From Squalus acanthias (Eukaryota), in the NCBI GenBank assembly GCA_030390025.1, contig CM059431.1, positions 149,980,001 to 150,044,000 on the forward strand: a stretch of DNA of 64,000 bases, written 5' to 3'. The translations under genes and the position numbers were made by a program. The notes below the pieces were generated by a model. That model saw nothing but the letters and a program-made list of their open reading frames with translations. It was not told the origin of the DNA and searched no databases. Shown here piece after piece: positions 681-57,509 of the stretch; the stretch's first letter is position 1; each line of letters opens with the position of its first letter.

Positions 681-1719
681 CGGACCGGGAGCGAATGTTT
701 TGGAAGCTTCTGGGACAGGAACCAAACTGCAACTGTAAATGTTGCTGATTTTGTGGGGATTTATTGGTGAGGCGCGTTGTGCATATTTAAAAAAAATATT
801 AATTGCAGAGCTGTCATGATGGATTCTTCTCTACGGTGACAATTTAGAAATAGAAAGTGGTGAGAATGTGAAACGGACCCTCCCTCACTCTCTCTCTCTC
901 TCCAGTTTCTAGCTCTCTCTTCACCAGTCTATATCTCTCTCTCCCCCATTCTTTCTCTCCCTTCTCTCTCTCGCCCTAATGTCTCTCTCACTCTCTCATT
1001 CCGTCTCTCTCTCCAGTCTCTCTTTCCCAGTCTCTCTCTCTCCCCGCCAGTCTCTCTCTCTCCCTGAGTCACACTCTCTCTCGCCAATCTCACTCTCTCT
1101 CGCAGTCTCACTCTGTCTCTCCCAGTAACTCTCTCCCCCAGTCTCTCTCTCTCCCTGAGTCTCACTCTCTCCCAGTCTCAGTCTCTCTCCCAGTCCCTCT
1201 CTCTCCCTCAGTATCTCTCTCTCCAACAGTATCTCTCTCACTCTCTCCAGTCTCTCTCTCACTCCCAGATTCTCTCTTCCTCCCCAGTCTCTGTCTCACC
1301 AGTCTGTCTCTCCCCAGTCATCGCTCCCCTCAGTCTCTCTCTCTCTCCTCCAGTCTGGCTCATCCACCAGACTTTCACTCCCCAGTATCTCTCTCTGCCC
1401 CCCAGTATCTCTCTCTCCCAGTCTCTCTCTCTCACTCCCCTAGAATCTCTAACTCTCTTCCCCCAGTCTCTCTCTTTCCAGTCTCTATCTCCACCCAGTC
1501 TCTCTCAACAGTCTCTCTCTCTCTCTCTCTCTCACACTGTCTCTCTATCTCCCTGTCTCTCTCTCTCTCTCCCAGTTCCTTACTCCTCCTCAGTCTCTCT
1601 CCCTCCTGAGCCTCTTACCCTCTCCTCCAGTCTCTTTCTCTCTCTCTCTCTCTTCCCTAGCCTCTCTCTCTCTGCCAGACTCTCTCTCTCTCTTCCAGTC
1701 TCTCTCTCTCTACCAGGTT

Positions 1720-2058
1720 TCCCCCCTGGCTGGTGTATTTAGTATTTGGGAGAATAATCTCAAGATAAGGGGTAGGCCATTTAAGACTCAGATGAGGAGC
1801 TTTTTCTGCACTCAGAGGGTTGTGAATCTTTGGAATTCTCTCCCCCAGAGGGATGTGGATGCTCAGTCGTTGAGTAAATTCAAGGCTGAGATAGAGATAA
1901 TTTTGGACTCTCGGAGAATCAAGAGATATGGCGATAGGGTGGGAAAGTGGAGTTGAGGTCGTTGATCAGCCATGATCTTAATGAATGGTAGGAGCAGACT
2001 CGAGGGGCCGTATGGACTTCTCCTGTTCTTATTTCTTATGTTCTAATGCTCTTATGTT
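1720..2058 (+). mobile_element. CR1 LINE 3' end fragment (copy 1)
   Basis: ataaggggtaggccatttaagactcagatgagg... encodes the CR1 ORF2 C-terminus; ends in a ttcttatgttct tail. Confidence 0.9.
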
Positions 2059-2771
2059 CTCTCTCTCTCTCCCCAGTCCCTCTCTCTACCACAGTCTCTC
2101 TCTCTCCCCAGTCCCTCTCTTTCTCTCCCACAGTCTGACTCTCTCCAGTCTCTCTCTCCAGCCTCTCTCTCCCCAGTCCCTCTCTCTCTACCACAGTCTC
2201 TCTCTCTCTCTACAGTCCCTCTCTCTCTCCCACATTCTCTCTCTCTCTGCAGTCTCTCTCTCTCTTCCCCAGTCTCTCACTATCCCCCAGTCTCTCTCTC
2301 ACACCCAGTCTCTCTCTCACCCCCAGTCTCACTCTCGATCTCCAGTAACTCTGTCTCCCCTCCCAGTCTTTCTCTCCCCCAGTCTCGCTCCCTCCCCCAG
2401 TCTCACCCTCCCCCCAGTCTCTCTCACTCTCCTAGACTCATTCACTCTCCCCCAGTTTTCCTCTCTCTCCAGTCACAATCTCTCCCCGTCTCTCTCTCTC
2501 CAGTCTATCTCTCTCCCCAAGTCACTCTCTCTCTCTGCGCTCTCTCTCTCCTGTCTCTCTCTCTAACCCCATTATCTCTCTCTCCAGTCTCCCCCACTCT
2601 CTCCAGTCTCTCTCCCTCACCGTCTCTCTCTCCCCCAGTCTCTCGCTCTCTACCCCCGTCTCTCTTCCTCCCCAGTCTATCTTTCTCTCTCTCCCAGTCT
2701 CTCACTCTATTCCCTAGCCTCTCTTTTTGCCAGACTCTCTCTCAATCCCTAATCTCTCTCTCTCTCTACCA

Positions 2772-3110
2772 GATTTTTTCCACAGGCTAGAATGTCTCGA
2801 ACTAGGGGAAATTTCTCAGTATAAGGGATAGGCCATTTAAGACTGAGATGAGGAGGAATATCTTCATTGTGAGGGTTGAGAATCTTTAGAAATCTCTGCC
2901 CCAGAGGGCTGATAATGCTGAGCCTTTGAGTACATTCAAGGTTGAGACAGATAGATTTTTTGACTCTAGGGGACTCACGGGATATGGAGGTCGGGCGGGA
3001 AAGTGGAGTTGAGGTCGATGATAAGCTGTGATGTTATTGAATGGCGGAGTAGGCTCGAGGACCGTATGGCCTACTCCTGCACATATATCTTATTTTCTTA
3101 TGTTCTTAAT
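2772..3110 (+). mobile_element. CR1 LINE 3' end fragment (copy 2)
   Basis: Same ORF2 C-terminus, 3'UTR and tcttatgttctta tail. Confidence 0.9.
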
Positions 3111-3261
3111 TTCTATCTCTCTGCCCAGTCTCTCTCTCTCTCCCCCAGTCTCTCTCTATCCCCCAGTTTCTCTCTCTCCCTCAGTAAAAACCCTCTCCAG
3201 TCTCTCTATCAGTCTCTCTCTCTCTTTCCAGCCTCTGTATCCCCCAGTCTCTCTCTCTCCC

Positions 3262-3302
<41 letters not shown>

Positions 3303-4644
3303 CCTCAGTCTCTCTCTCGCTCCAGTCTCTTTCTCTCCCTAAGTATTTTTCTCTCCAGTCTCTCTCTCCCAGTCTCTCCCTCTCTCTCTCTCTCTCAAGC
3401 CTTTATGACACTTCGGCTCTCTTCCCCCCGTCTTTCGCCCCCAGTCTCTCCCTCCCCCAGTCTCTCTCTCTCCCCACCCCCAGTCTATAGCCTCTGTCTC
3501 CCCTAGTCACTCTCTATCTCCCCAGTCTCTCTCACGCCCAGTCTCTCTGACCCCCAGTCTCCCTCCCACCCCCAGTCTCTCTCTCCCACACGGTCTCTCT
3601 CTCTCCAGTCCCTCTCTCTCTCCCACAGTCTCTCTCCCTCTACAGTCTCTCTCTCTCTCCAGTCACTCTCTCCCTCAGTCTCTATCCATTCCCCAGTCAC
3701 TTCCTCTCCCCAGTCTCTCTCACTCTCCTAGACACTTTCACTCTCCCCCAGTCTTCCTCTCACTCCATTATCTCTCTCCCCCGTCTCTCTCTCTCTCCAG
3801 TCTATCTCTCTCCCCATGTCTCTCTCTCTCTGCAATCTCTCTCTCTCCTGTCTCTCTCGCTAACCCCATTCTCTCTCTCTCACCAGTCTCCCTGTCTCTC
3901 CAGTCTCTCTCCCTCCCCGTATCTCACTCTCCCCCAGTCTCTCGCTCTCGCCCCCAGTCTCTCTCCCTCCCGAGTCTCTCTCTCTCTCTCAAGCCTCTAT
4001 CTCCCCTAGTCTCTCTCTATCTCCCCAGTCTCTCTCACCCCCAGTCTCTCTGTCCTCCAGTCTCTCTCTTTACCCCAGTCTCTCTCTCTCACCCCCAGTC
4101 TCTCTCCCACTCCCAGTCTCTCTCTCCCCCACAGTCTTTCTCTACCCCACAGTCTCTCTCTCTCTCCAGTCCCTCTCTCTCTCCCACATTCCTCTCTCTC
4201 TACAGTCTCTCTCTCTCTCCAGTCTCTCACTTTCTCCAGTCTCTCTCTCCACCAGTGTCTCTCCATTCCCCAGTCTCTCCCTCTCCCCAGTCTCTCTCAC
4301 TCTCCTAGACACATTCACTCTCCCCCAGTCTCCCTCTCTCGCCATTGTCTCTCTCTTCCCCGTCTCTCTCTCTCCAGTCTATCTCTCTCCCCATGTCTCT
4401 CTCTCTCTGCAGTCTCTCACTCTCCTGTCTCTCTCGCTAACCCCATTCTCTCTCTCTCCAGTCTCCCTTCTCGCTCTCTCCAGTCTCTCTCCTTCCAGTC
4501 TCTATCTCTCCCCCAATCTCTCGCTCTCGCCCCCAGTCTCTCTCCCTCCCGAGTCTCGCTCTCTGTCACCCAGTCTCACTCTCTCTCCCCCAGCCTCTCT
4601 TTCTGCCAGACTCTCTCTCTCCCCCAATCTCTCTCTCAATACCA

Positions 4645-4985
4645 GTTTTTTTCCCCTGACTGGTGTGTCTAGACCTCGGGGGCAATTTCGCACTATAAGG
4701 GATAGGCCATTTAAGACTGAGATTAGGAGGAATATCTTCACTCAGAGGGTTGTGAATCTTTAGAATTATCTGCCCCAGAGGGCTAAGAATGCTGAACCTT
4801 TGAGTATATTCAAGTTTCAATAGCTAGATTTCTGTACTCTAGGGGATTCTTGGGATATGGAAGTCTGGCGGAAAGTGGAGTTGACGTCATTGATCAGCCA
4901 TAATCGTATTGAATGGCGGAGCAGTCCCGAGGACCGTAAGGCCTGCTCCTGCACTTATTTATTATTTTCTTATGTTCTTATATTC
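4645..4985 (+). mobile_element. CR1 LINE 3' end fragment (copy 3)
   Basis: Same as copies 1-2. Confidence 0.9.
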
Positions 4986-5564
4986 TCTCTCTCTCTCCCC
5001 AGTCTCTCTCTCAAATCCAGTCTCTCTCTCTCCCCATCTATCTCTCTCTCCCTCAGTAATTATCTATCCAGTCTCTCTCTCCCAGTCTCTCTCTCTCTCT
5101 CCAGCCTCCATTACCACTAGTCTCTCTCCATCCCCAGTCTCTCTCTCAAATCCAGTCACTCTCTCTCCCCATCTATCTCTCTCTCCCTCAGTAATTATCT
5201 ATCCAGTCTCTCTCTCCCAGTCTCTCTCTCTCTCTCCAGCCTCCATTAACCCTAGTCTCTCTCCATCCCCAGTGCCTCTCTCTCTTCGCCAGTCTCTCTC
5301 TCCTCCCCAGTCTCTGCCTCCCCCAGCCTCGCTCTCTCCCCAGTCTCTCTTTCTCTCTCAGTCTCTCTCTCCCCAGTATCTCTCTCTCTCACCCAATCTC
5401 TCTCTCCCCAGTGTCTCTCTCCCCGAGTCTCTCTCTCTCCAGTCTCTCTGTTTACCCAGTCTCTCAGCGTCCCCATTCACTCTCTCTCTCTCCCCCAGTC
5501 TCTCTCTAACCTAGCCTCTCTCTCTCTGCCAGACACTCTCACCCCTCAGTCTCTCCAATCATCA

Positions 5565-5905
5565 GTTTTAACCCTGGCTGAAGTGTCTAGAACTCGCGGC
5601 CATAGTCTCAGGATAAGGGGTAGGCCATTTAAGACTGAAATGAGGTGGAATTTCATCACTCAGAGGGTTTTGAATCTTTGGAATTCTCTGCCCCCGAGGG
5701 CTGGGAATGCTGAGTCTTTGTGTATCTTCATGGCTGAGATAGATAGATTTTTGAACTCTAGAGGAATGAAGGGATATGGAGAAGGTGTGGGAAAGTGGAG
5801 TTAAGTTAGATGATCAGCCTTGAACTTATTGAGTGGCGGAACAGCCTACAGGGGACGTATGGTCTACTCCTGTTCTTATTTAATATTTTCTTATGTTCTT
5901 ATGTT
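5565..5905 (+). mobile_element. CR1 LINE 3' end fragment (copy 4)
   Basis: ORF 5583-5804 SRTRGHSLRIRGRPFKTEMRWNFITQRVLNLWNSLP is the typical CR1 ORF2 C-terminus. Confidence 0.92.
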
Positions 5906-6129
5906 GTTATACTCTCTCTACGCCCCCAGTCTCTCTCTATCTCCTTAGTCTTTCTCTCTCCCCCCCCCGCCTCTTTCTTTCTCCCCACTCTCTCTCTCTG
6001 ACCCTGCCCAGTCTCTCTCTCCCCCGTCTCTCTCTTTCTCACCACTCTCTCTCTCTCCCCACCCCCCACTCTCTCTCTCTCTCTAAAATCTCTCTCTCTC
6101 CCCAGTCTCTCTCTCTCTACCCTGAGAAA

Positions 6130-8707: not shown

Positions 8708-9505
8708 GAATCACAGAATCATACAGCGCAAAAGGAGGCCATTCAGTCCATCGAGCCTGTGCCGGCTCTTTGAAAGATCTATTCAATTTGTGTCCCTCCC
8801 CTGTTCTTTTCCCATAGTCCTGCAAGACCCTCACTTACAGTATTGATCCCGTTCCCTTTTGAAAAATATTATTGAATCTGCTTCTATCACCTTTTCAGGC
8901 AGTGCATAACAACTCGCTTCGTAGATCAAATTCTCCTCATCATCCCTCTGGTTAATTTCCCAATTATCTTATATCTGTTTCTTCTGGTTAACGACTCTTC
9001 TGCCAGTAGAAATATTTCCTCCTTATTTACTCTATCAAACCCGTCATAATTTTGAACATCGTCAGTATATCTTCATTTTATATTGCGGGCTCGCTGGAGA
9101 ACATTTCCCGCTTCTCTTGTCTCTCTTCAAAAGTTAAGACTCTCATCCTTGAAAACGTTCCAGTAAATCACCTCTGCGCCCACTCCAAGAAATTGGCATC
9201 CTTCCTAAAGCTGCCAAGAATCGGACACAACACTCCAGCCGGGGCCTAACCAGCGATTTATGAACGCGCAGCATAACTTCCTTGCTCTTGTTCTCTGCCA
9301 CTATTGATAAATCTAAGATTCCCATTTCTCTTTTTAACAATCTTGTCAACTTGTCCTGCCATCTTCAAATGCTTGTGCAGGTAAACTCCCAGGTGTCTCT
9401 TTTCCAGCACCCCCTTTAAAATTGTACAATTTCGTTTGTATTGCCTCTTCTCATTTTCCTCCCAGATTTATCCTTCACAAAACTCTGCCTTAAATTCATC
9501 TGTCT
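8708..9505 (-). mobile_element. CR1 3' fragment
   Basis: Minus-strand ORF fragments KSKEVMLRVHKSLVRPRLECCV; CR1 tail at the left end. Confidence 0.85.
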
Positions 9506-9509
9506 TTTT

Positions 9510-10136
9510 TCATTTTTATTAATTCCTGGGATTTGGCCTTTGCTGGCACGGCCAGCAATTATTGCCAATCCCTAATTGCCCTTGAGAAGGTGGAGTTGAG
9601 ACAACTTCTTGAAACGCTGCAGTCCGTGAGGCGAAGATTCTCCCACAGGGCTGTTATCGAGAGAGTTGCAGGATTTTCACCCAGCGACGATGAAGGAACG
9701 GCGATATATTTCCAATTCAGGAAAGTGTGTGACTTGGAAGGGAACTTGGAGGTTGGTATGTTTCCAAGCGCCTGCTGGCCTTTGCCCTTCTATGAGGTAG
9801 AGCTCGCGGGTTTGGGAGGTGCTTTCGAAGAAGACTTGGCGAGTTGCTGCAGTGCATTTTGTAGATGGCACACTCTGCAGCCACGGTACTCCGGTGGTGG
9901 AGGGAGTGAATATTTAATCTGGTACATGAGGTGCCAATCAAAGGTGTTGCTTTGTCCTGGATGATGTCGAGCTTCTTGAGTGTTGTTGGACCTTCACTCA
10001 TCCTGACGAATGGAGATTATTCCATCACACTCCTGACTTGTGCCTTGTAGATGGTGGAAAGTCTATGGTTTGTCAGGATGTGAGACAGTCGCGTTAAAAT
10101 ATCCAGTTCTGACCCGGTCTTGTAGCCACAGTTATT
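9510..10136 (-). mobile_element. CR1/L2-group LINE (distinct family), 3' part, interrupted by the Harbinger element
   Basis: Minus frames give TIYKAQVRSVME..., PTTLKKLDIIQDKA..LIG, NIHSLHHRSTVAA; the sequence continues seamlessly at 14745. Confidence 0.85.
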
Positions 10137-10607
10137 GGGCCAGAAATTCATCTGGCTCCGTTCCCGCGGGTGTAAGGAGCAGGCGCGGTAATACATACCG
10201 CGTCTGCCGTTTCCTCTTTTTCACGTTGAAAATTCATCTTCTGGCTGATTGAGTGCAGGGCAGCGTATGACGTCACACTGCCCTGCAGCGCAGCGTGCGC
10301 GTTGCATCGCGTGCGATGTGGAGTGAAGACACGCCCATTAAGGTCTCTTTTCCATAGGCCACGCCCCCGATTTTTTTCTCCACTGCAGCCATTGTAAAGC
10401 AGCTGGAGACACAGTTTTCTCACTGTTTCAGGTGGAATTTGCAGTAAGTAGGTTTTAAATGCATGGTTTTGTAAACTTTTAAAGATTTTTAGTATAATTT
10501 GAGTAATGTTAAACATTTGCAAAGAGATTTAAAGTAATTTAAGTACTTTTAAAAGTTCAGAAATCATTTTTTTCAGAGATTTAACTGTTTATAATCAGCA
10601 AACGAAA

Positions 10608-12098
10608 ATGGCTGCTATCAGCACTATCCAATTTATAAAAAGAACACAGAATTTCAGTGATGATGATCTCCGTACACTTCTTGACGAGGTAGAATCGAAA
10701 CGTTCACGGATAATTGGAACTCAGAAGTCCAAGCCGCCGCGAAAAGGCCAAATGGCAGCGTGGAAAGAGGTTGCTCAAAGTGTGAGCGCAACCTCGACCA
10801 TTCCACGTACAGCCGAGCAATGTCGCAAAAAATTCAGCGATTTATATCGAACGCTGAAGGTTTGTATAGTTATAACAAAAGTCAATGTTAAAATGTCTTT
10901 ACATTTAAAATGAAAAGCCTTGAAAAAGTGTTTGTTTGCTAAGCTGAGTTAACTGAAGTCACAAGATGCTACCATAAATTTTTGTGGCTTTTGTAGCCAG
11001 GCAAGTCTCATAAAATGCTAATGTCATCTTGATTGAAATGCTTTGAGTTGCTTACTGAGTTAACTGTGTGAGTGCCAATGCAGTTCTGGTGTAAAAACCC
11101 TTACATTTCAGATTTTCATTTTCAATTTTAGAGTAAAACTGCTCACAACGCCAGAGAACGTTCACTGACAGGCGGTGGTGTTGTCATGTTAAGGGCTTTA
11201 ACCGAACATGAGGAAAGGCTCGAGCATATCTTTGGATATCTTAGCGGATGTCCCTTTGGAAATGAACGATTCGACAAAGGTGATGTGTGCTGAATAGCTT
11301 CTGTGATGTGGCACATCATGCTTTACCTTTGCTAATCTTTACTGTTTCCTTTACATTGGTTTTGAGCATACTTCTCAGTCACGGGATGAGCAGTGCGTTG
11401 AGTCTGCAGCCAAAGAGGTAATTAGTGAAGGGCATGTTGAGCCAGTGGGAGATGCGAGTGAGGTGTTGGTGGAGGAGCAGCAGGAGGAAGTTTTTGCTGA
11501 ATTAAACATGGAGGCTCTGGAATCTGGGTTGCAGGAGAGGTCCTCTCAATCTTCCTCTCCAACTCCTGGCCCCTCTGGCTCTGTGCCAAACAGACAGCAG
11601 CTTGATACTACAGTGCCTGTGGGAGACACAGATATATATGCAGCAGAACAGGTGATGCATGGTGACATCCACCAACTTGTAGGCTTGACTCAATCGATCT
11701 CTTCTATTTCAGAGAAAGAAGTTGATTGTCTTACCTTGGTCAAGCAGGGATTGGGAAATCTGGGAATGGAGCTTAAGAATATAAATGAGTCTCTTGAAGG
11801 AATGTTGCAGAAACCCGATGTGGGAGTGCAGCTTAGTAAAATAACTGAGTCTCTTGAAGGAATGTTGCAGAAACCCGATGTGGGAGTGCAGCTTAGTAAA
11901 TTAAATGAGTCTCTTGAAGGACTGGTGGGAGTGCAGCTTAGTAAAATAAATGAGTCTCTTGAAGGACTCATGCGAATAATTTCTGCTGCAATTACTGTGA
12001 CTCCATCAGAACCAACCTTACCTGCTCCCAGCGCAGAATCAGTGCAGGTCCAAGAGCCACCAACGATGATGCAATCAAGAAAGCGCAAGAGACGTTAG
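10608..12098 (+). CDS. Harbinger Myb/SANT-like (MSANTD/trihelix-type) DNA-binding protein, 3 coding exons: 10608-10859, 11132-~11279, ~11379 or 11410-12098
   Basis: Exon 1: NFSDDDLRTLLDEVE...AWKEVAQSVS...RTAEQCRKKFSDL, then aag|gtttgt. After ttttag| exon 2 reads in frame SKTAHNARERSLTGGG, a typical Harbinger Myb-protein motif. Exon 3 is acidic/coiled-coil and ends SRKRKRR. The exon 2/3 junction is uncertain. Confidence 0.85.
11761..11968 (+). repeat. In-frame 60-bp tandem repeat inside the Myb gene (ESLEGMLQKPDVGVQLSK)
   Basis: The 60-bp blocks at 11761 and 11821 are near-identical, followed by a 45-bp and a partial copy. Confidence 0.95.
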
Positions 12099-12603
12099 GG
12101 TGTTGCATGTTCCACAATGCACATCCATTGACCCTCAGGAATAGTTTATTTGTGGTTAAATTTCTCAAGTGTTTACTTTTTAGTTTTATTTAAAACTTAC
12201 ATGTTTACATTTTTCTTTATTTATATATATATTTGACACTGAAACTGAAAGTTAGCTTTTCATTGAAAAAGTACAGCCTTTAGTCACTTTATAAAAATTC
12301 AAATTGTTTATTTTCACAAAAAAATTGAACATTTAAACTTGTTTACATATAGGAAAGAGTTATTTCCCATCTTGAATGTCTTTACTGCATTAACGAAGCA
12401 AAAAAGTTACTGAGAACTGTTAACAAATTTGTGAAAAACCTATTTCTGTTTACGATTGTTTACAAAGTTGAAAAGTAGCTAGTTAACATTGAAAAGTTAT
12501 AAACTATGTAAAGCAACAATGAACCTCAGAAGTCTGTAATGCTGCAATAAAAGAGCACTGTTTCACTTTAAATTGTGTCTGTACCTTTATTTGCCTTGCT
12601 GGT

Positions 12604-12808
12604 GGAGAGGGAGGGGGAGGGGGAGAGGGAGAGGGATGGGGAGAGGGAGGGGGAGGGGGAGGGGGAGAGGGGAGGGGGAGGGGGAGAGGGGAGGGGGAGG
12701 GGGAGGGGGAGAGGGGAGGGGGCAGAGGGGAGGGGGAGGGGGAGAGGGGAGGGGGAGGGGGAGAGGGGAGGGGGAGAGGGGAGGGGGAGGGGGAGAGGGG
12801 AGGGGGAG
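12604..12808 (+). repeat. (GGGGAG/GGGGAGAG)n polypurine tract
   Basis: About 200 bp of almost pure G/A between the two convergent Harbinger genes. Confidence 0.95.
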
Positions 12809-12827
12809 CGGGAGATACAAGGCGACA

Positions 12828-13979
12828 CTACCTCGTGAAGGTGTTGGCTACCAGCTGCTCCCTTGCAGCCTTACTTTGAGCAGCAGTTGGCTCTTCCCCA
12901 TCATGCCTTCCCACAGGCACATTGGCATTGTCCACGTCCTCCATTTCTGCAGGTAGTTCATCTGCAGCGTTAAGGGTCAGTCCTTCCTGCAGGGCAAAGT
13001 TATGCAAAGCACAACAGGCCACCACAATCTTTGCCACTTTCTGAGGAGAATACTGCAAGGTCCCCCCTGACCTGTCCAGGCACCGGAAGCGTGATTTCAG
13101 AACTCCAATTGTCCTCTCCACCACTTGCCGTGTGGACACGTGTGCCTGGTTGTATCTCTCCTGAGCCTCATTATTGGTCTTGCGGTAGGGAGTCATCAGC
13201 CATGGTCTTAGCGGGTAGCCCTTGTCGTTCAATATCCATGCGGATCCTGGAGGCAATGCGTTGAGGACGCCATATAAGTCAGAGTTACGGAGGACGAAGG
13301 AGTCATGATTACTTCCACGGTTACCTGCATTCACATTTAAGATCCTGAGATGCGCATCACAGACAATCTGGACATTCAGTGAATGAAACCCCTTCCTGTT
13401 GATAAATGTCACAGGTGCAACCCCTGGTGCCTTCAATGCTACATGGGTTCCATCGACAGCCCCAATCACTTTGGGGAATCCAGCAATGTTATGAAATGCA
13501 AGCGCCATCTCCTTTTGATGGCGAGCAGACAAGTCATACTTAATGAACTCAGAAGCCCTACGGTAAATGGCTTCTGTGACCTGGTGAATGCAGGCCCTCG
13601 CAGCATTCTTGGATATGTTGCAATTGTCACCGGTGCTTGCCTGAAAAGTCCCACTTGCAAAGAAGTTCAGTGCTGTGGTTACCTTCATGCTCAGTGACAA
13701 TGCATTGCGTTTCTTCGTGCGTGTTTGAAGGTCCTCCTGTAACATCTCACAGATTCGGCCAATTGACTCTTTACTGAAGCGCAGCCTCCTCACACACAGC
13801 TCCTCCGACAGCATCTCAAATGACAGCCTCTGCCTGTACACTCTATTTGGTGGGTAGTAGTTTCTCCTTCTCTGGAGGAGACGGGCTTGGTTCCTCCGTC
13901 TGATTCGTTGTCTGTATTCGAAAATTCTCAGATACGTAATCACACAGAGGAGGAAGAACAATCGATTGCAAAAGGGCAT
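12828..13979 (-). CDS. Harbinger DDE transposase (HARBI1-like, DDE_Tnp_4 family), 383 aa
   Basis: Uninterrupted ORF with LRFSK, ALNFFASG, FPKVIGAVDGTHV, NRKGFHSLNVQIVCD, GSNHDS, DKGYPLRPWLMTP, YNQAH..TRQVVERTIGVLKSRFRCL, IVVACCALHN. Confidence 0.96.
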   Translation of the reverse strand: MPFCNRLFFLLCVITYLRIFEYRQRIRRRNQARLLQRRRNYYPPNRVYRQRLSFEMLSEELCVRRLRFSKESIGRICEMLQEDLQTRTKKRNALSLSMKVTTALNFFASGTFQASTGDNCNISKNAARACIHQVTEAIYRRASEFIKYDLSARHQKEMALAFHNIAGFPKVIGAVDGTHVALKAPGVAPVTFINRKGFHSLNVQIVCDAHLRILNVNAGNRGSNHDSFVLRNSDLYGVLNALPPGSAWILNDKGYPLRPWLMTPYRKTNNEAQERYNQAHVSTRQVVERTIGVLKSRFRCLDRSGGTLQYSPQKVAKIVVACCALHNFALQEGLTLNAADELPAEMEDVDNANVPVGRHDGEEPTAAQSKAAREQLVANTFTR

Positions 13980-14744
13980 CTTTCTCTCACACAGGCTTCC
14001 TCCTCAAACTGAAAGTTGGAATGAAAAAATGGAAATAGTTGTTAAAGTAACTTTAGTTAAGTGAGTGGCTATAAAATCAGGTCAGGCTATGGTGGGACAC
14101 GTGCGCTATCAGCTTGGGAACACATCTACCCGCCACACGGCCCTAGCTGATTTTCCAAACCTGTAACATTTTCATAAATTCATACATACATACATACATA
14201 CTTACTTACTTACTCATTTTCATCTTTAAAACTTTTTGAAACGTAAACAGTTCATTTTTAAACTTTCATTTTCACAGATAGATACCTAAATATGCCTTGT
14301 ACACACCCACAGTTGCTATACTACTCCAAATGGTCAAAACCCGTTTTAAATTTTTTTTTTTTAAACTCTTAACTTATATAAGACTTCATTTAAAACTTTT
14401 GTGTCTTTCAAATTTAAAAAACTCACCTCAGTAGCCACACTCCAAAAGGATTTCTTCCTCCTACTTATCTCGGCAAATGTATAAATGGCTGCTGCTCCTG
14501 CTTTTAAAATGTGTAACTGCTCGGAGCTTACACACACTACTCTCATTCACAAAATACATGAATTTTCCGACGCACGCGCAGAATCACCAGCCCACGCGAT
14601 TACTCGCAGATCCATGAAACTGACCAGACATGAAGTGCCGGTTTTCAGCGCATGCGTAGTGCATGCAGAAAACCGGCAATTGAAGAGGGAATACGCGAGT
14701 GTACGCAGTGCGTACTCTCGCGCACCAGGATGAATTTTTGGGCC

Positions 14745-15420
14745 ATTGTGTGGTTGGTTCCGTTAAGTTTATGGTGAATGATGATCTTCAGGATATTGAT
14801 GGTGGGGGACTTGGAATTGAATGTCAAGGGGAGGTGGCTCTTGTTGGAGATCATCATTGACTGCCACTTGTGTGGTGCGAGTGTTACTTGCCACTTATTA
14901 GCCCAAGCCTGAAAGTCGACCAGTTCTTCCTGCATACGGGCACGGACTGCTTCATTATCTGAGGAGTTGCGTGTTAAAGTGAACACTGCAATCGTAAGCG
15001 AACATCCCGAGTTCTGACCTTATGATGGAGGGAAGGTTATTGATGGAGCAGCTGAAGGTGGTTGGGTCTCGGACACTGCCCTGAGGAACACATGCTGCGA
15101 TGCCCTGTGGCTGTGATGATTGATCTGCAACAACATTTGTGCTAGGGATGACTCGTGCCAGTGGAGTGCAACCCCCCTGATTCCCATTGACTTCAATTTT
15201 ACAAGGGCCCTTTGATGTCACTCTCAGTTAAATGCTGCCTTGACTTCAAGGGCAGTCATTCCCATCTCACCTCTGGAATTCAGCTCCTTTGTCCATGTTT
15301 GGACTAAGGCGGTAATGAGATCTGGAGTTGAGTGGTCCTGTTGGAACTCAAACTGAGCGCCGGTGAGCAGGTTATTGGTAAGTCAATAGCACTGTCGACG
15401 ACGACTTTCATCACTTTGCT
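14745..15420 (-). mobile_element. CR1/L2-group LINE RT region (remainder of the element split by Harbinger)
   Basis: Minus ORFs VPQGSVRDPTTFSCSINNLPSIIRSELGMFAYDC and QAWANKWQVTLAPHK. Confidence 0.85.
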
Positions 15421-16282: not shown

Positions 16283-16859
16283 GACACTAATAGCATCAAT
16301 GCAGGGTTTCCTTCTTCTATTAATAAGGGATTCAATTCAATATGTTATCACATAGTGTCAGTGAGAGCATCACCTCCGGCACTAACAGGGATCTGTACGC
16401 TGCTCCACAGAGAGGGAGTCGGAATCTGAGAACAATAGATTGGAATGTTACAGCAATGGATCAGAATCTGAGAACAGTAGATTGGAATGTTACAACAATG
16501 GGCAGGAGTTTCATGTGGGAGATTGACCATCTTTCTGCATCTTATGATGGAATATCATTAAATATCTGGTTCTTGTTCGCACTTAAGATTATTCAACACT
16601 TTTACTATCCGCTGCTTGCTGCTGTAGGTGTTCCTGGTAAGTCTGTCTCTCCAGCTATTCTATTAACCATGTTTAACAGCATTACTGTACTTGTCATTTA
16701 CTCTCCCCTCCTTGTAGGTTTGTTGTTGCTTGTAAGTCTCTGTATCCAACTCTTAACTCTGCAAACATTTGCTAACTGCATTAATGCTCCTGTACTTTAC
16801 TCTCTCATCTTTGCCCTGTTAAGTCTCTATATCCAGCAATTACATCTGTAATCCAATGA

Positions 16860-20499: not shown

Positions 20500-22065
20500 G
20501 GCCGAGAAATTCGTCTCGGGCGTTGGCACTAAATGTGTGGTGGCGCTAAACGGGCGGTATTGGATCATAACAACATAAGAATTAGGAGCAGCAGTAGACC
20601 ATTTGAACCTTCGAGCCTGCTCCGCCATTCAATTTAATCATGGCTGATCTTGTACCTCATCTGCACTTTCCTGCACTATCCCCATAACCCTTGATAACAC
20701 TTAATATTCAAACATCTAACGAACTCTGTCTTGAATATACTCAACGACTGAGCCTCCACAGCCCTCTGCGGTAGAGAATTCCAAAGATTCACCACCGTCT
20801 GAGTGAATAAATGTCACCTCATCTCAGTCCTAATTGGCCGACCCCTTATTCTGAGACTGTGAACACTGGGTCTAGATTCCCCAGCCAGGGGAAACATCCT
20901 CTGTTCATCTACCCTGTCAAACCCTTTAAGAATTGTGTATGTTTCAATGAGATCACCTGTCATTCTTACAAACTCCAGAGAATATAGGCGTAGTTTACTC
21001 AAACACTCCTCATAGGTCAATCCCCAATCCCAGGAACCTGTCTGCTGAACCTTCTTTGAACTCCATCAATGACAAGTATATCCTTCATTAGTTAAGAAGA
21101 CCAAAACTGCACACAACATTCCAGGTATGGTCTCACCAGGGCTCTATATAATTCCAGTATGACGTCTTTACTCGTATACAGGAATCCTCTTGTAATAAAG
21201 GCCAACATACCATTTGCTTTCCGAAATGGTTGCTGTACCTGCATGTTAACTTCCAGTGATTTTTGTACAAGGACACCCAGGTCCCAATGAACAGCAACAT
21301 TTCCCAATCTCTCACCATTTAAAAAATGCTCTGTATTTCTATTTTTCCTACCAAAGTGGATAACATCATATTTCTCCACGTTGTATTCTATTTGTCATGT
21401 TCTTGTCCACACACTTAGCCTATCTTTTTCCCATTGAAGACTTTTTGCATCCTGCTCACAACTTACATTCCCACCCAGCTTTGAATCACCAGCAAACTTG
21501 GATATAATACATTTGGTCCCCTTATCCAAATCATTGACGCAGATTGTTAATGGCCGAGGCCCAAGCACTAATCCTTGCGGTTCCCCATTAGTTACAGCCT
21601 GGCAACAGGAAATTGACCCGTTTATTCATACTCTTTGATTTCTGTCCGTTAACCAATCCTGAATCCATACTAGTATATTATCCCCAATCCAATCAGCACT
21701 AATTTTGTTTAATAATCTTTTGTTTGGCACTTTATCGAATGCCTTCTGAAAATCCAAAAACACCGCATCCATGGTCCCCTTATCTATACCGCTAGTTACA
21801 ATCTCAAGATCTGTCAAACACAATTTCTCTTTTATAAATCCGTTTTTACGCTGCCCAATTCTATTATAATATTCAAAGTGCCCTGTTATGAAGTCCTTAA
21901 TAATAGATTCAAGCATTTCCCTAATACTGATGTCAGGCTAACTGGACAGTAGTTCCCGTTTTCTCTCTCCCTCCTTTCTTAAATAGTGGGGTTACATTTG
22001 TTACCTGCGTTACACGCAGCTCCTGATATTCAGTGCCACCGCAGTCAATTAAGGATTTCTAGGCC
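20500..22065. mobile_element. Non-autonomous Harbinger-like element (GGCC-ended TIRs), split by CR1
   Basis: Ends ggccgagaaattc / ggatttctaggcc (11/13 inverted match), flanked by AAG on both sides (20497-20499, 22066-22068). Confidence 0.65.
20566..22005 (-). mobile_element. 5'-truncated CR1 LINE
   Basis: Minus ORFs DFQKAFDKVP, LYRALVRPYLECCVQFWS, RLYSLEF; cataagaattaggagc tail. Confidence 0.93.
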
Positions 22066-23875: not shown

Positions 23876-23940
23876 GGCCGAGAAATTCCTTCTCGGGCGA
23901 CGGCACAAAACAGCTGTTTTTTTATCGGAAATTCTAGGCC
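23876..23940. mobile_element. 65-bp Harbinger-like end-to-end mini element
   Basis: ggccgagaaattcc...gaaattctaggcc; left end near-identical to 20500; no clear TSD. Confidence 0.5.
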
Positions 23941-27392: not shown

Positions 27393-29572
27393 TCAGCGAA
27401 TGCTCGGTATGGTTACTGACACAGTGTCACAGGAACAAATCCTGACAGATCACACCCACATCTTTAAATGTCTGAAATATCCGCTAATCATTCAGTTCCA
27501 GTCAGTGTCTCCTTTCCCACCATATACAGCTCTGCATTAGTGGCACTGATTCTGTTGGTTAAAATAGGATTATTAGGATAATTTACATTCTCAAAAAAGT
27601 TCACTCAGACATATTTCAATGCGTTTATTTCCAATCTTTGTTTTTGAATTTACAATTGGAGCCCATGCAGGCCAGTCACAGTTCAGTGGATCTCTCAGTG
27701 AGACCCAGAGTGATTCTCTGTTGCCTCCTGCTGTACTGCAGAATAAACAATCCCAGCTGATTGTAACTGAAGTACTGAGGATAAGAAAATCTTTTCATAT
27801 TTTCTCGACTAATATTCTCTGCACAAATTGCAAACCAACAGGTGATAAAGTACAAGGATAAATCTCGTTGCCTGTGTGATAAGTCGCGTAATTATGAAGC
27901 TAAAAAGTGTATTTAGTGGGCTATTACCTGGTCAAAGATAACTATTTATTTTATTTCAGAATCCATTCTTTGCAATGCTATTTGGAAAATCTTCCATTCA
28001 ATGAGCTGCAATTTGCGTATTTCAACAAAACTGTAGAAAGCTCAAAGTTCAAAACAATTCTTATAGCCCAGTTATCTGTATAACTGCAGTGCACTTGTAT
28101 TTATTATCTCAGATTTGCATATTACAGCCGTACATATTAAATACAATTGCCGGTAATTATTGCACGCCAAGCTTGCAGTTTCTGTATTTTGTTGTTGCAT
28201 TCATTTTCAGTTGTAAATATAGCCTGGAACATGAATCTAGGCGGGGTTTCCCCCTCACTAACAACAGGGGCACAGAAGCGAATTGCACCGTTCCAAATGC
28301 TGACTGATCCCGGGACACGAAGGCTTCCTGAGAGTTTCTGGTCCTTTGTGTCCCTGGTACCTCGGGCGGCGCTTTTGTCTGCTGGGCTAAAGGCAGATCT
28401 ACCATTTAATCTCTCATTGATCAAACATCTGTTACTTTCATGTTATCCCCGTTTCATTTATTAATTCCGCAGTGTAATCCCGTTTATTCTTACAATTTTC
28501 AGATCCACGAGTAAAATAATTAGATTATATAATAGAATGTCGCTATTGAGTTGCATCTTTCTCCCCGAATTCCATCAAATGCTGCTCTTGCTCCCAGCCT
28601 GATGTATAATATCCCTGTTTATTTCCCTTCGTTACAGTGAACTTAGTGACGATTGTGATCCTGTCCCGGGGAAAGTGCGGTCTCTCCAAATGTGTCACTC
28701 GGTACCTGGTGGCCATGGCAGCGGTGGATTTACTGGTCGTTATACTCGACCTGATATTGAGGCAGATTCCGATTGCTTATATGGAACAGTTTATTTTCTT
28801 GAATTCATTCCCCGTGTGTAATATCCACGCCATCCTGCTTTATATAGCCACGGACTGTTCTGTCTGGTTCACCGTCACTTTCACATTTGATCGATTTGTG
28901 GCCATTTGTCGCCAGAAGCTGAAAACTAAATATTGCACCGAGAAATCGGCGGCTGTGGTTCTGGGAACAGTGACTGCGCTGAGCGGGTTAAAGAACATTT
29001 TCTGGTATTTTATGTTCACAGATCGGTATATGCTTATGAACTTCCCCTGGTTTTGTGATGTAACAATTCATGTTCTGTTTTCACGGATCTGGGGAGCAAT
29101 CGAGCTCATTCATTATATTCTCAACCCGGGGCTCCCATTTTTGGTGATTCTGCTGCTCAATGCTGTCACCGTCAGACATATTTGAGTGTCCAGCAGAGCC
29201 CGCAGGAGACTCCGGGGTCCCAGCAGTGGGGAGAGTCCCAGAGACCCAGAGATGGAGAGCCGCAGGAAATCCATCATTTTACTGCTTGTTATCTCCGGCA
29301 ATTTCATCCTGTTATGGGCAGCGTTTATGATCTTTGCTCTTTGGAACCGGATGTTTTTTCTGGGGTTTCGGGATGTAGATCCACCTCTTTATTTACAGGA
29401 TCTGGGATTGATGTTGCAGATGCTCAGTTGCTGCACAAATACTGGGATTTATGTCGTGACCCAGACTAAGTTCAGAGAGAGTTGAAGTACGTGGGGAAAT
29501 ATCTCTCCGCTCTGATTATAAAATTCATTAAAGAATGATGTGAATGGAGATTTTGTAGCCTGAAAGCTCCCT

Positions 29573-32832: not shown

Positions 32833-33575
32833 GGCCCGAAAATTACGCACTGTATACTCTCGCATATTTGGTCCCGAATTGCCGGTTTCCTGCATGCACT
32901 GCGCATGCGCGGGAAACCGGCACTTCGTGTACTGCAAAGGGGGCGGTTCCTAAGTGACCCGCTTGCGCGATAAAGGTTGTGCGCATGCAGTGCACTTAGT
33001 TTTTTTTTCAGGTTTGAACGCGCAGGTAAGTGGTGAAGATTTTACACACAAAGAAAGCAGGCCTAGGACCCCCTTTTAACAAAGTAAGTAGTTAATTAAG
33101 TGTTATTTTTAAATTTTTTCAACAGGTTTATCTTTTTTAGAGACTTTAAAGAAAGGTAAGTTTAATTTTATAACTTTTAAAAAGATTTAAAAGTTTTCAA
33201 AAATTTAATTTTTTTGTTTAAAGTGGTTAATTTATTTAACTATACTTATTTTATTAATGTGATGGCTTTAAAAAAAATTAATTGAGGTTTAGCTGTTCTT
33301 TTGTGGGCTTGTAGTATTCATAGTTTTGACAGCCCTTGCTGTCAAAACTATGAATAAAAGATGGTGTGCTGCCATTGGCTCTAACTGAATCACGTGATCC
33401 CAGAGCTCGCACGAACTAATTGCGCCTCTGGGTACGCAAGCACTGCACAATTGCAACAGGGAGAGGCTCTGAAACTAAAGTTCATGTGGGCCCCAAACAA
33501 AAAGGTAGGCACGGAGTACGATATCGCGGGGAATCCTTACCCCCGCGGGAATCATCGATGTTTAATTTCTGGGCC
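32833..33575 (-). mobile_element. Non-autonomous Harbinger element related to 10137-14744 (inverted orientation)
   Basis: Ends ggcccgaaaatt / aatttctgggcc; subterminal blocks match both ends of the autonomous element; flanks AAT/ATT; no coding capacity. Confidence 0.85.
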
Positions 33576-46224: not shown

Positions 46225-49200
46225 ATCCAAAGTGGTATATCTGTTTGAGAGGGGAATGTCCACAGGGGACCCCTGCACTACCTGCCTGCGCCGACTACTC
46301 TGCCTGGTGGTCACCCATTGCCTTCCTGCCAGTGCAGCCTTTACCTGCGAGTGACCAACTCCCTAAACATGCTATCCACGATGTTCTCAGCATCGCAAGT
46401 GCTCCAGTATGCATCCATTCGCAGCTCCAGCGCCGCAATGCGGTCTGCCATTAGCTGCATCTGGATACACTTCCCGCACACATGGTCAACAGACACTCTC
46501 TTTAAAATGGCCCTTTGATAGAAAGACTCCCTCTTTAAAATGGTCCCTGATGGTGAGACTCCAACTTTAAAATGTTCCCTGATGGTGAGACTCCCTGTTT
46601 AAAAGGGGTCCCTGATGGTGAGAATTTCTCTTTAAATGGTGTGCCTAATAGGAACATTATCTTTAAAAGGTATCCCTGATAAAAAAAAAAACTCTCTCTT
46701 CAAAAGGGGCCCTAGATAGAAAGACTCCCCCTTTAAAAGTGGTCCCTGATGGTGAGACTCCAACTTTAAAATGTTTCCCTGATGGAGACACGCCCTCTTT
46801 AAAAGGGGTCCCTGGTGGAGAGACTCTATCATTAAAATCCGTGAAGCGGATACTCCCTCTTTAAAATGTCCCCTGATGTAGGGATTTAATCTTTAAAAGG
46901 TGTTCCTGATGCTGAAACACCCTCTGTAAAACGGGTCCCTGATGGTGAGACTCCCTCTTTAACAGGGGTCCCTAATGGAAAGATTCCCTATTTAAAAGGG
47001 GACCTTGCTAGACATATTTTCTCTTTAAAAGGGGTACCTGATAGAAAGACTATTTCTTTAAAATGTGTCCCCGTGAATGAGACCCCTTCTTTCAAAGGGC
47101 TCCATGATAGAAAGACTCTCTCTTTAAAAGAGTCCGTGATAGAAAGACTTTCTCTTTAAAAAGGTTCTCTGAAGTTGAGACTCCCTCTTTAAAATGGTCC
47201 CTGTTTGTGAGACTCAATCTTTAAAAGGGGGCCCTGATGGTGAGATTTCCTCTTTATAAAGAGTCCCTGGTGATGAAACAGCCTTTTTAAAAGGGGTCGC
47301 TGATGGTGAGCCTCTTTCAAAGGGTTCCCTAATGGGGAGACTCTCTCTTTAAAAGAGGTCCCTGATAGAAATACTCTCACTTTAAAAGGGATCCCTGATG
47401 CAGAGACACCCTCTTTAAAAGTGGTGCCTGATGGTGAGACTCTCGCTTTAAAAGCGGTACATGATGGTGAGACTATCTCTTTAAAAGCGTCCCTGATGCT
47501 GAATCTCCATCTTTAAAAGGGATCCTTGATGGTGAGCCTGTTCAAAATGATTACTTAATGGGGAGACTCTCTCTTTAAAAGGGGTCCCTTATAGAAAGAC
47601 TCCTTCTTTAAAAAGAGTCCCTGATGCTGAATCACCCTTTTTAAAAGGGGATCCTGATGGTGAGCCTCTTTAAAAGGGTTCCCAAATGTTGATACTCCCT
47701 CTTTAAACAAACTCTGGTGGAGAGACTCTCTCATTAAAAGGGGTCTCTGACGGTTTTACTCCCTCTTTAAAAGTGGTCCCTGATGGGGTAACACCCTCTT
47801 TAAAATGTGTCCCTGATGGAGACAACTCCGCTTTAACAGGGGTCCCTGATGGTGTGTCTTGCTCTTTAAATGGTGTCACTAATAGGAAGATTCTCCTGAA
47901 AGGGGCCCTTGATAGGAAGAATCACTATTTTAAATGGGTCCCCGAGGGTGAGACTCCCTCAAAAAAATCCTCCCTGATGGAAAGACAATCTAGTTAAAAG
48001 GTGTCCCTGATGGGGAGACTCCCTCTTTAAAAGGTGTCCCTGATGGGGAGACTCCCTCTTTAAAAGAGGTACCTGATGGTGAGACTCCCTCTTTAAAAGG
48101 GATCCCTGAGTGTGAGACTCTTTCTTTAATTTGGATCCCTGATGGTGAGACGCACTCATTAAAATGGTTACTGATTGTAAGACTCTCGTTAAAAGGCTTC
48201 CCTAATCGAAAGACTCCCTCTTTAAAATGGTCTCTGATGGTGAGACTCTCTCTTTAAATGGGATCACTGATGGTGAGATTTCCTCTTTAAAAGTGATCTC
48301 TAATGGGGAGACCTTCTCTTTAAAAGGGATCCCACATGGTGAGACTCCCTCTTTAAAAGGGATCCCAGATGGTAAGACTCACTCTTTAAAGGGGATCCCT
48401 GATGTTGAGATTCCCTCATTAAAAGGGGCCCCTGATGGTGAAACTTCCTCTTAAAATTGTTCCCTGATGGTGAGACACTCTCTTTAAAAGGGATCCCTGA
48501 TCTGAAGACTCCCTCTTTATAAGGGGAACACTGATGGTGACACTCCCTCTTTAAAAGGGTTCGCTGATGACGAGAATCTCTCTTTAAAAGGTGTCCCTAA
48601 TAGGATGAATCTCTTTAAAAGGTGTCCTTGATAGAAAGACTCTCTCTTTAAAAGGGATCCTTGATGGAAAGTCTTTCTCATTAACGTGGTCCCTGATGGT
48701 GAGACTCTCTCTTTAAAATGGGTCCCTGATGTTGAGAGTCCCTCTTTAATAGAAGTCCCTGATGCTGAAACATCATATTTTAAAGGGGTCCCTAATGGGG
48801 AGACTCTCTCTTTAAAAGCGTTCCGAAAGAAAGACTCCCTCTTTAAAAAGTGTTTCTGATGGTGAGACTCTCCGATTAAAAGGGTTCCCTGATGATGAGA
48901 ATCCCTCTTTAAATGGGGTCATTGATGGTGAGACTCCGTCTTTAAAAGGGGCCAGTGATGGAGAGACTCCCTCTATAAATGGTGCCCCTGATGGTGAGAC
49001 TCCGTCTTTAAAAGGGGAAACTGACGGTGAGACCCATGTTAAAAAGATTCCCTGATGGGGTGACTCCCTCTTTAAAATGGGTCCCTGATGGTGCGACTCC
49101 CTCTTCAAAAGGGTTCCCTAATGGTGAGGCTCTCTCATTAAAATATGTCCCTGATGGTGAAACACCCGCTTTAAAAGGGGTCCCGGAGGTGAGACTCTCT

Positions 49201-49369
49201 CTTTAACAGGTGTCCCTGATAGAGAGACTCTCTTTAAAAGCGGTCACTGATGCTGATACTCCCTCTTTATAAAGGTTCAATTATGGAGAGACTCTCCCTT
49301 TAAAAGGGGTCCCTGGTTGAGAGATTATCTCATCAACAGGGCTCCCTGACAGGAATACTCCCTCTTTAA

Positions 49370-52300: not shown

Positions 52301-52770
52301 GTGAGTGCAGCGTGGCATGGCAGGAATGACGTATGAAGAGAGATTGGGTCGATTGGGTTTGTATTCGCAAGAGTTTAGAAGAATGAGAGGGGCTCACATT
52401 GAAACTTATAAAATTCTAACAGGACTAGACAGACTAGATGCAGGAAGGATGTTCCCGATGGCGGGGTGTCCAGAACCAGGGGTCACAGTCTAAAGATAAG
52501 GGGTAAGCCTTTTAGGACTGAGATGAGGAGTAATTTCTTCACCCAGAGAGTGGTGAACCTGTGGAATTCTCTACCGCAGAAGACAGTTGAGTCCAATTCA
52601 TTACATATATTCAGAAGGTGTTAGATATATTTATTAAAGCTAAGGGGATCAAGGGATATGGGTCGAAAGCAGGGTCAGGGTACTGAACTTGGATGATCAG
52701 CCATGATCGCATTGGATAGCGGAGCAGGCTCGAGGCGCCGAATGGCTCCTATGTTCTATGTTTCTATGTG
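49370..52770 (+). mobile_element. 5'-truncated CR1 ORF2 (same subfamily as 42443-46495)
   Basis: ORFs at 49434, 49931 and 50423 (VYLDFQKAFD, SGVPQGSVLGP); tatgtttctatg tail. Confidence 0.95.
51530..52146 (-). mobile_element. CR1 3' fragment nested in the CR1 above (subfamily of the 34199-38718 copy)
   Basis: IPGMRGWSYEERLGRLGLYSLEFRRMRG...; agaacataag tail; the host frame resumes gcaaatggtatg. Confidence 0.92.
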
Positions 52771-57292: not shown

Positions 57293-57509
57293 TGACGTAT
57301 GAAAACTACAAAAAACTTGATCTAAGCGTTAAACAAAGCTTTAATCAACTGTTTTTCAACATGGAGGTCTATTTGTATCCATACTGGTTCCTGTAAAGGA
57401 ATGTCCTAAGCAAGTTGGGCCCATGCCCTAGTATTTATACTCTCCCTGGACAGCGCCACCAGCAGGTCGGCTAGTATTATTTCATACATGAATGACAAGA
57501 TTCTTGTCA
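57293..57509 (-). mobile_element. Solo LTR (217 bp)
   Basis: TGAC...GTCA termini; the minus strand has TATAAATA then ATTAAA; flanks ctgac/ctgaa (5-bp TSD, 1 mismatch) inside the satellite. Confidence 0.7.

Follow-up and report, generated by a model that had tools for sequence, protein, structure and literature searches.

Structure of the locus

The window analysed here is the whole 64,000-nucleotide stretch of the Squalus acanthias genome at positions 149,980,001 to 150,044,000 of contig CM059431.1 (assembly GCA_030390025.1), and coordinates below count from its first letter. At 10137–14744 it contains a Harbinger-type DNA transposon with two convergent genes, encoding a DDE transposase and a Myb/SANT protein, inserted in a decayed long interspersed nuclear element (LINE), which we take to be of the CR1 type. 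The transposase gene is open, and the Myb gene carries a T at the acceptor of its second intron where sibling copies have an A; consequently, this copy is probably non-autonomous. The features on which the analysis rests are the following, with terminal inverted repeats and target-site duplications abbreviated as TIRs and TSDs, and open reading frames as ORFs.

10137–14744: whole element, TIR-bounded, two convergent genes
10137–10152, plus strand: left TIR, GGGCCAGAAATTCATC, 16 bp
14729–14744, minus strand: right TIR, reverse complement GGCCCAAAAATTCATC
10134–10136: left TSD, ATT
14745–14747: right TSD, ATT
9500–10133, minus strand: host LINE, downstream half, decayed, with very high summed contig depth
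14748–15400, minus strand: host LINE, upstream half, decayed
10608–10859, plus strand: Myb exon 1, 84 codons, Myb_DNA-bind_5 domain (PF13873 match)
10860–11131, plus strand: Myb intron 1, 272 nt, GT..AG, spliced joint present in contigs
11132–11279, plus strand: Myb exon 2, 148 nt, ending in phase 1, with an HNARERSLT junction that agrees with shark homologues
11280–11358, plus strand: putative Myb intron 2, 79 nt, with a T at 11357 that makes the acceptor of this copy TG
11359–12098, plus strand: Myb exon 3 to the stop, with an acidic stretch, a 60-bp tandem unit and the basic tail RKRKRR
12828–13979, minus strand: transposase ORF, 383 aa, D176-D252-E288, with N251 before the second Asp
14009–14426, minus strand: candidate intron in the 5' untranslated region of the transposase gene, GTGAGT donor and pyrimidine-rich CAG acceptor

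The left TIR and the reverse-complemented right TIR agree at 14/16 positions, starting with GGG and GGC, respectively. A TIR with a 3-bp repeat is in itself not rare: throughout the window, 78 of the 10,462 inverted 16-mer pairs with at least 14/16 identity and a spacing of 1–10 kb have a 3-bp direct flank, the majority of these being GA/TC microsatellites or inverted LINE copies. The element call is safe because the ends, both genes and the reading register of the host LINE co-occur. This register could be followed in one out of six LINE-derived proteins (P0265), which crosses the insertion junction and gave its best score, 103 bits and ungapped, with exactly 3 bases removed. Removal of 0, 1 or 4 bases gave 99.4, 97.4 and 97.4 bits, and with 2 or 5 bases the junction was not spanned. 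A 3-bp TSD is thereby backed by a single homologue with a small score margin, in agreement with the visible ATT. No second LINE copy covering the junction was found within the 64-kb window, and two LINE ORFs gave no Pfam match. The three minus-strand frames of the flanking LINE contain 12, 18 and 17 stops over 1,290 nt, as opposed to the open ORFs of the element. An earlier note, made from the sequence, had described a two-gene Harbinger inserted in a LINE with a 3-bp duplication and much better preserved than its neighbours, and this description was borne out by the ends, the ATT on both sides, the LINE register and both protein domains.

The transposase and its relatives

The transposase matches PF13359 (DDE_Tnp_4) with E = 1.3e-41 and 142 bits against a cut-off of 24.8, and the catalytic residues are found in the motifs VDGTH (D176), NDKGY (D252) and VVERT (E288), confirming the unbroken 383-aa enzyme with a full D-D-E triad noted previously. 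In the AlphaFold2 model (predicted local distance difference test, 86.6; predicted template modelling score, 0.81), these residues sit on a strand, a strand end and a helix. A sequence search for solved homologues returned none, only three chance matches (E 0.16–0.35), and Foldseek gave no match at E 0.001 or better, its best rows being other DDE enzymes (piggyBac, E 6.5e-3). A complex prediction of the transposase with Myb exon-3 residues scored 0.00, with an uncertain partner fold.

The exact transposase sequence is absent from the protein collection searched. The best matches are cartilaginous fish models annotated as 'putative nuclease HARBI1', with 67% identity in Pristiophorus, 63% in Carcharodon and 61% in Scyliorhinus; the nearest relatives, all shark proteins, span 61–72% identity, and mammalian HARBI1 38–39%. 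In a midpoint-rooted FastTree phylogeny of 85 hand-picked sequences, assembled without a labelled Nuwa or Pangu reference, the transposase falls together with three models from Pristiophorus (support 0.946) inside an all-shark clade (support 1.0; one member without a species name).

The residue preceding the second catalytic Asp is G in 230 of 255 homologues. The only N is that of P0005, a Pristiophorus model that ranks with the closest relatives and has the identical 11 residues AWILNDKGYPL. When only the 189 homologues with a full triad are considered, 12 carry a non-G residue at this position and one has a gap. As the change from G to N takes two base changes, the N shared with P0005 points to common descent. 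It should be added that two other Pristiophorus models of the same clade have G, and that P0005 itself is damaged. The NDKGY motif is thus probably characteristic of a sub-lineage and not a lesion private to this copy. The earlier note had offered 'family trait or lesion', and P0005 favours the former and speaks against a private lesion.

Splicing of the Myb/SANT gene

Exon 1 of the Myb gene matches PF13873 with E = 4.5e-14 and 52.6 bits against a cut-off of 21.7, and is 58–63% identical to five shark proteins. The 60-bp tandem unit in exon 3 occupies 11758–11982, in frame and in approximately 3.75 copies. The splicing pattern was derived from contigs of sequencing runs. Parts of the element are present in 20 of the 23 runs listed, which represent four organisms (A–D) and eight studies, with a best share of 0.61. 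The contigs were compared over the region 9500–11755 in four of these runs (X1, X4, X13 and X14), among the pieces listed. The intron 1 joint was found at a depth of 28 in X1 and 14.1 in X14, and at a depth of 0 in both X4 and X13. X1 and X14 thus behave as RNA from which intron 1 has been removed, although their RNA status is a guess and the unspliced form is also present.

The limits of intron 2 are suggested by the ends of two pieces. Record 22 of X14 departs from the window at 11278 and continues with 52 letters whose differences count from 11358, while record 8 of X1 starts matching the window at 11358 and is preceded by 55 unlike letters. From these piece ends we place intron 2 at 11280–11358. 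Joining 11279 to 11359 results in a single open frame of 379 aa ending in RKRKRR. An initial splice model, with its donor at 11284 and acceptor at 11378, was dropped as the contigs point to 11279/11359; the acceptor at 11378, the first good-looking one in the window, is in phase 0, and the exon-2 donor at 11279 in phase 1.

Base 11357 is A in the entire depth of both runs that cover it (60.6/60.6 in X1 and 1158.5/1158.5 in X4), and T in the window. Thus, the sibling copies have AG at the intron-2 acceptor and this copy has TG. Use of five of the six next AGs, or retention of the intron, would bring the Myb frame to a stop at 135–140 aa. The sixth AG, at 11409, is in frame (362 aa) and is preceded by 8/18 pyrimidines, compared with 14/18 at the true site. 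In combination, these observations indicate that the copy is probably non-autonomous, with the intron-2 acceptor lost and the Myb protein cut at 135–140 of 379 aa. The 'spliceable' Myb gene of the earlier note accordingly stands for intron 1, spliced in the X1 and X14 contigs, and probably fails at intron 2; the copy is thus probably not 'intact' in the sense of an autonomous element, in which both ORFs are whole.

Family copies

The distance between the window copy and its nearest sibling was calculated from five of the eight X1 pieces, setting aside a LINE piece and two others of low depth that are ~10% distant, and amounts to 6 differences in 1,522 nt (0.39%). X1 hence contains pieces both ~0.4% and ~10% from the window copy. 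The corresponding figures are 27/1,001 for X4 and 53/1,577 for X14, using 8/8 pieces in each case, and 21/924 for X13, from one element piece. At many sites where the high-depth contigs of X4 deviate from the window, X1 has the same base as the window, which places both in one small sub-lineage.

X14, from organism B, contains a copy with a different left flank, and one of its contigs skips 369 nt (11186–11556) without GT..AG ends, as expected for an internally deleted copy. The other flank, the variants and the deletion together imply a family dispersed with derivatives rather than a fixed gene pair. No listed piece bridges the insertion flank, and the pieces are uninformative on presence or absence of the insertion. 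The summed contig depth of X4 reaches 23,233 at 10183, against ~800–6,100 per bin inside the element; this end bias hints at many short derivatives and is not a copy number. Likewise, the word share of 0.61 in X1 would, as a matter of arithmetic, need approximately 0.15 from the transposase side, a hint that this gene is represented there as well.

Proposed mechanism and age of the copy

For Harbinger3_DR and Ping/Pong, it has been reported that the Myb protein binds the element ends, imports the transposase and positions it, and that the transposase excises the element and inserts it into a preferred target of 9–15 bp (PMC2836001, PMC3016246, PMC9392472). By analogy, the Myb/SANT protein of the present family would bind the ends and recruit the DDE transposase, which would excise the element and, on insertion, duplicate 3 bp within a palindromic target of greater length. 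Normal splicing of this copy would give a Myb protein of 135–140 aa in which the DNA-binding domain is preserved but the C-terminal two thirds, including the basic tail, are missing. The copy could still supply transposase and be moved, given Myb protein from a correctly spliced sibling 0.39% away. We therefore favour, with a probability of roughly 0.65, a full-length copy of a multi-copy, NuwaI-like Harbinger family inside a dead LINE, made non-autonomous by a private splice change and in need of a sibling's Myb protein.

How recently the family has moved is a separate matter. A mutation rate of 7e-10 per generation is given for the epaulette shark, with a 95% confidence interval of 1.4–14.1e-10 (PMC10587355). 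At 7e-10, a distance of 0.39% corresponds to approximately 2.8–5.6 million generations. This figure is crude and should probably be read as an upper limit, as three of the four coding differences are silent, some differences may be inherited or errors, and organism A is perhaps another species. The 'young copy' of the earlier note can accordingly be kept in a relative sense, by comparison with its neighbours and with the nearest expressed sibling, but not as a statement of absolute recency, as the separation possibly spans millions of generations.

The strongest alternative, which we consider a serious contender falling somewhat short of even odds, is a family fossil: the elements would have spread before organisms A–D split and have long been immobile, looking fresh owing to slow shark mutation, and the transcripts would be leftovers. 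The presence of the family in four organisms at distances of ~2–3.5%, the millions of generations obtained above and the finding of a lesion in the one full-length copy examined (1/1) are all consistent with it. However, the near-identical sub-lineage is the very one that is spliced in X1, the ORFs are open while the flanking LINEs are full of stops, and the rate was measured in a different species, its confidence interval spanning a factor of ten.

Target triplet and related elements in the window

Two further elements in the window bear on the choice of target.

32833–33575, plus strand: 743-bp non-coding relative with both end types, flanked by AAT and ATT; closest relative in the window
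20500–22065: element with similar 12-bp ends (GGCC.AGAAAT), its AAG duplication at the centre of the perfect palindrome GAAGAC[AAG]GTCTTC; a LINE piece (~20566–21998) interrupts the element

The 32833–33575 relative has the subterminal palindromes of the main element and bears several GTAAG donor-like words. A 65-bp piece at 23876–23940 also shows both end types (GGCCGAGAAATT ... AAATTCTAGGCC), with flanks AAG and CCC and without a duplication. The AAT/ATT flanks at 32833 prompted a 2-bp target (A/AT/T) to be considered; it was ruled out at the main site, where it breaks the LINE register.

In the survey of Han et al. 2015, PIF/Harbinger is assigned the triplet TWA, NuwaI the triplet CWG and Pangu the triplet ANT, some Pangu rows giving ATT or AWT; all 23 NuwaI families of its Table S5 carry CWG (PMC4482050). 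A survey of miniature inverted-repeat elements of the PIF/Harbinger type in moths gives 'TWA, AT or AWT' (PMC9033116). By these sources, ATT is known in the superfamily but unlisted for NuwaI. The main site fits the Harbinger3_DR flanks at 7/12 positions, reached by 3.3% of window positions, and the 20500–22065 site at 9/12, reached by 0.16%. The main site also agrees with the flank motif A..Y[ ]R..T at 4/4 positions (1.6% background), and the 32833 element at 2/4. Recognition of the flanks with a loose central triplet is the simplest reading of these data. The earlier proposal of AWT as a non-canonical target, measured against a classical TWA, is weakened in both parts: ATT and AWT are published in the superfamily, a single site cannot define a target while related ends show AAG and AAT/ATT, and the triplet to be expected for a NuwaI-like element is CWG.

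A tentative alternative, to which we give somewhat less credence than to the fossil, is that the family has an AWT or ANT triplet of its own, having shifted from the CWG of NuwaI towards the Pangu type with the NuwaI-type flanking motif kept. In its favour, CWG is uniform among the NuwaI families of Table S5, ATT is found at the main site and beside AAT at the closest relative, and an organism B contig aligns five bases into the flank (10132–10136, ending in ATT) before becoming unlike. Conversely, there is one clean site, the flanks of the relative disagree at the middle base and the third like-ended element has AAG. Moreover, one organism C contig begins exactly at 10137, the first base of the left TIR, and not at 10136, which is unexpected for a fixed T at position -1 (weak, at a depth of 2.7), and the 7/12 match to Harbinger3_DR is retained at the main site.

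Autonomy, transfer and domestication

Several observations weigh against the loss of the Myb protein. T11357 is known from the assembly alone and could be an assembly error. The intron-2 joint, deduced from piece ends, is absent from the 15 joints listed (97 further). The Myb protein could be rescued by splicing either in frame to the cryptic acceptor at 11409, for 362 aa, or from a second donor at 11284, for 374–378 aa. Finally, 3/4 of the coding differences from X1 are silent, hinting that some were inherited from a working lineage. If so, the copy would be fully autonomous, through either a consensus error at 11357 or cryptic in-frame splicing to a working Myb protein, and with just six differences from an expressed sibling in 1,522 nt, and a whole transposase ORF and triad, such a copy is conceivable. 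We nevertheless consider it unlikely: five other private differences lie nearby, so that private changes must be genuine or else errors frequent, and the in-frame cryptic acceptor is pyrimidine-poor and used by no listed contig.

Arrival of the element in organisms A–D by horizontal transfer appears very unlikely. Near-identical sequence is present in all four, and two other organisms of organism D's study contain 0.00 of the element words, but A, B and C all contain the flanking LINE family, and the nearest protein relatives are all from cartilaginous fish.

Related genes of a different kind were encountered in sharks and rays. Transposase-derived proteins of 385–388 aa (P0007, P0008, P0267–P0277), from sharks and rays of 12 named species, are 89.4–99.7% identical; 15 of the 25 members of the group were listed, plus P0007, and one per species was used. 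In 13/13 rows, G replaces D176, the first catalytic Asp. The group is sister to the clade of the window transposase (support 0.999) and distinct from the 349-aa HARBI1. On the Myb side, five shark proteins (P0121–P0125) are 67–90% identical to one another over their length and 52–54% identical to the element Myb in the N-terminal part. These Myb/SANT genes encode 435–485 aa (also P0339 and P0361) with a similar C-terminal layout of repeat region and basic tail, and they vary in repeat number where the element Myb has its 60-bp tandem unit. Both conserved genes look domesticated from their conservation, and the G-for-D176 transposase gene is a candidate for an undescribed domestication; our literature searches found no paper on it. 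The two lie on different contigs in Carcharodon and Stegostoma and are hence not neighbours. Further cross-species shark and ray 'HARBI1' groups with altered catalytic residues (P0012/P0013/P0355–57, P0014/P0016/P0358–59, P0017/P0360 and P0022/P0023/P0025) possibly represent additional domestications. In S. torazame, P0355/P0356 are on contigs of equal size to that of the Myb protein P0361.

That the element itself is a domesticated, immobile gene pair of the HARBI1/NAIF1 kind is hardly credible: conserved shark genes do descend from close relatives of both its proteins, but their identity to this copy is only ~50% for the transposase and 37% for the Myb protein, its TIRs, TSD and LINE insertion are intact, and other flanks and deletion derivatives exist, the dispersed paralogues that run counter to domestication being already indicated by the contig variants and differing flanks.

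The preferred reading of a non-autonomous copy within a multi-copy family can be extended, in a manner that we regard as doubtful, to a native vertebrate Harbinger sub-lineage that is still mobile, with an A-N-T triplet on a NuwaI-type flank and the N-for-G motif. Its working master would be the spliced sibling of organism A, and the domesticated pair of sharks and rays would descend from its older relatives. If true, this would be a second domesticated module of the HARBI1/NAIF1 kind, alongside which the mobile sister clade persists. The sister relation to the conserved genes would permit a direct comparison of mobile and domesticated forms.

A 2022 survey reported no Harbinger in the elephant shark and called for checks in other cartilaginous fish (PMC9179366); later repeat annotations report Harbinger in the whale shark and grey reef shark. 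In our literature searches, no description was found of a full-length shark Harbinger complete with its ends, its target and the two genes. In the papers cited here (PMC2836001, PMC3016246), the vertebrate Harbinger whose movement was demonstrated had been reconstructed. A native family such as the present one, in which the transposase is open and the Myb gene of a sibling is spliced, therefore lends itself to a two-protein assay and to the question of what determines the central triplet, albeit with modest importance.

Non-coding architecture and other features of the window

The remaining features of the element are non-coding.

10230–10287: left subterminal region, with a second AAATTCAT word (10230–10237) and a hairpin with 10-bp arms (10254–10287)
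12600–12810: G/A-rich simple repeat between the convergent 3' ends
14633–14681 and 14694–14722: two subterminal palindromes, also in the related element at 32833

The word AAATTCAT occurs four times across the two 200-bp ends, and together with the left subterminal region provides candidate Myb-binding sites. An AATAAA is found at 12546. The observed/expected ratio of CpG is 1.2–1.3 in 10137–10340, 14540–14744 and Myb exon 1 (10608–10859), and 0.28–0.59 elsewhere. Outside the element, the ORF pieces at 16327–16851 and 28610–29185 resemble a seven-transmembrane receptor gene, possibly of the GPR139-like type that is frequent in shark genomes. At 46480–58950, a short and degenerate unit is repeated in tandem over a long array, and the ORF piece at 61000–61698 resembles the GIY-YIG endonuclease region of a Penelope-type element.

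Comparison with known systems

The element belongs to PIF/Harbinger in the broad sense (PHIS), having a DDE_Tnp_4 triad, a Myb/SANT gene and short TIRs with a 3-bp TSD, within a dispersed multi-copy family that includes non-autonomous derivatives (the contig variants and the 32833–33575 relative). Its ATT differs from the TWA of strict PIF/Harbinger (Han et al. 2015) and from the CWG of NuwaI. In NuwaI, the second ORF mostly carries Myb_DNA-bind_5 where a domain is named, as it does here, and the TIRs usually start with GGG, which is found here at the left end only, the right being GGC. Taken together, we place the element as a HARBI1-related, NuwaI-like Harbinger, a placement suggested by the 38–39% identity to HARBI1, used as a proxy, and by the Myb_DNA-bind_5 partner.

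Among the closest described systems is Harbinger3_DR of zebrafish, listed as NuwaI-2_DRer in Table S5 of Han et al. 2015 (PMC4482050). As compared by description, both have a DDE_Tnp_4 transposase with a Myb_DNA-bind_5 partner, a short TIR, a length of ~4.2–4.6 kb and a 3-bp TSD, and the target fits the AAACAC..GTCTTT flanks of Harbinger3_DR at 7/12 positions on the minus strand. They differ in the triplet (ATT, not CWG), the transposase length (383 vs 343 aa), the single GGG end and the N in place of G before the second Asp.

Pangu/Harbinger2 (Han et al. 2015; PMC12730594) shares the ANT-type triplet, fitted here by ATT at one site, GG-starting TIRs (11–40 bp in Pangu) and two ORFs. However, Table S3 lists no vertebrate host for it, and its second ORF is mostly domainless, Myb_DNA-bind_4 being given in 2/34 rows and Myb_DNA-bind_5 in 0/34 (PMC4482050), whereas Myb_DNA-bind_5 is found here. 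Pangu also forms a clade separate from Harbinger/Nuwa, and the present transposase is the HARBI1-like enzyme described above. ISL2EU, with its 2-bp AT in A/AT/T, THAP transposase and YqaJ partner, was rejected, as that target breaks the LINE register and the proteins gave no THAP or YqaJ match.

The nearest sequences by phylogeny are the shark 'putative nuclease HARBI1' models of RefSeq/UniRef, for example P0005, P0001 and P0006 (Pristiophorus japonicus) and P0009 and P0021 (Heptranchias perlo), which are 59–72% identical and fall in the same clade (support 0.946–1.0). They differ in a decayed look, with gaps, lost triad residues and truncations, and in being annotated as host genes with no ends or partner given. 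Domesticated genes such as HARBI1, NAIF1 and MSANTD are single-copy and have no TIR or TSD, and the dispersed, TIR-bounded element is of another kind. HARBI1/NAIF1 (PMC9392472) nonetheless draws on the same protein families and the same two-protein logic as the element, and differs from it in consisting of single-copy host genes.

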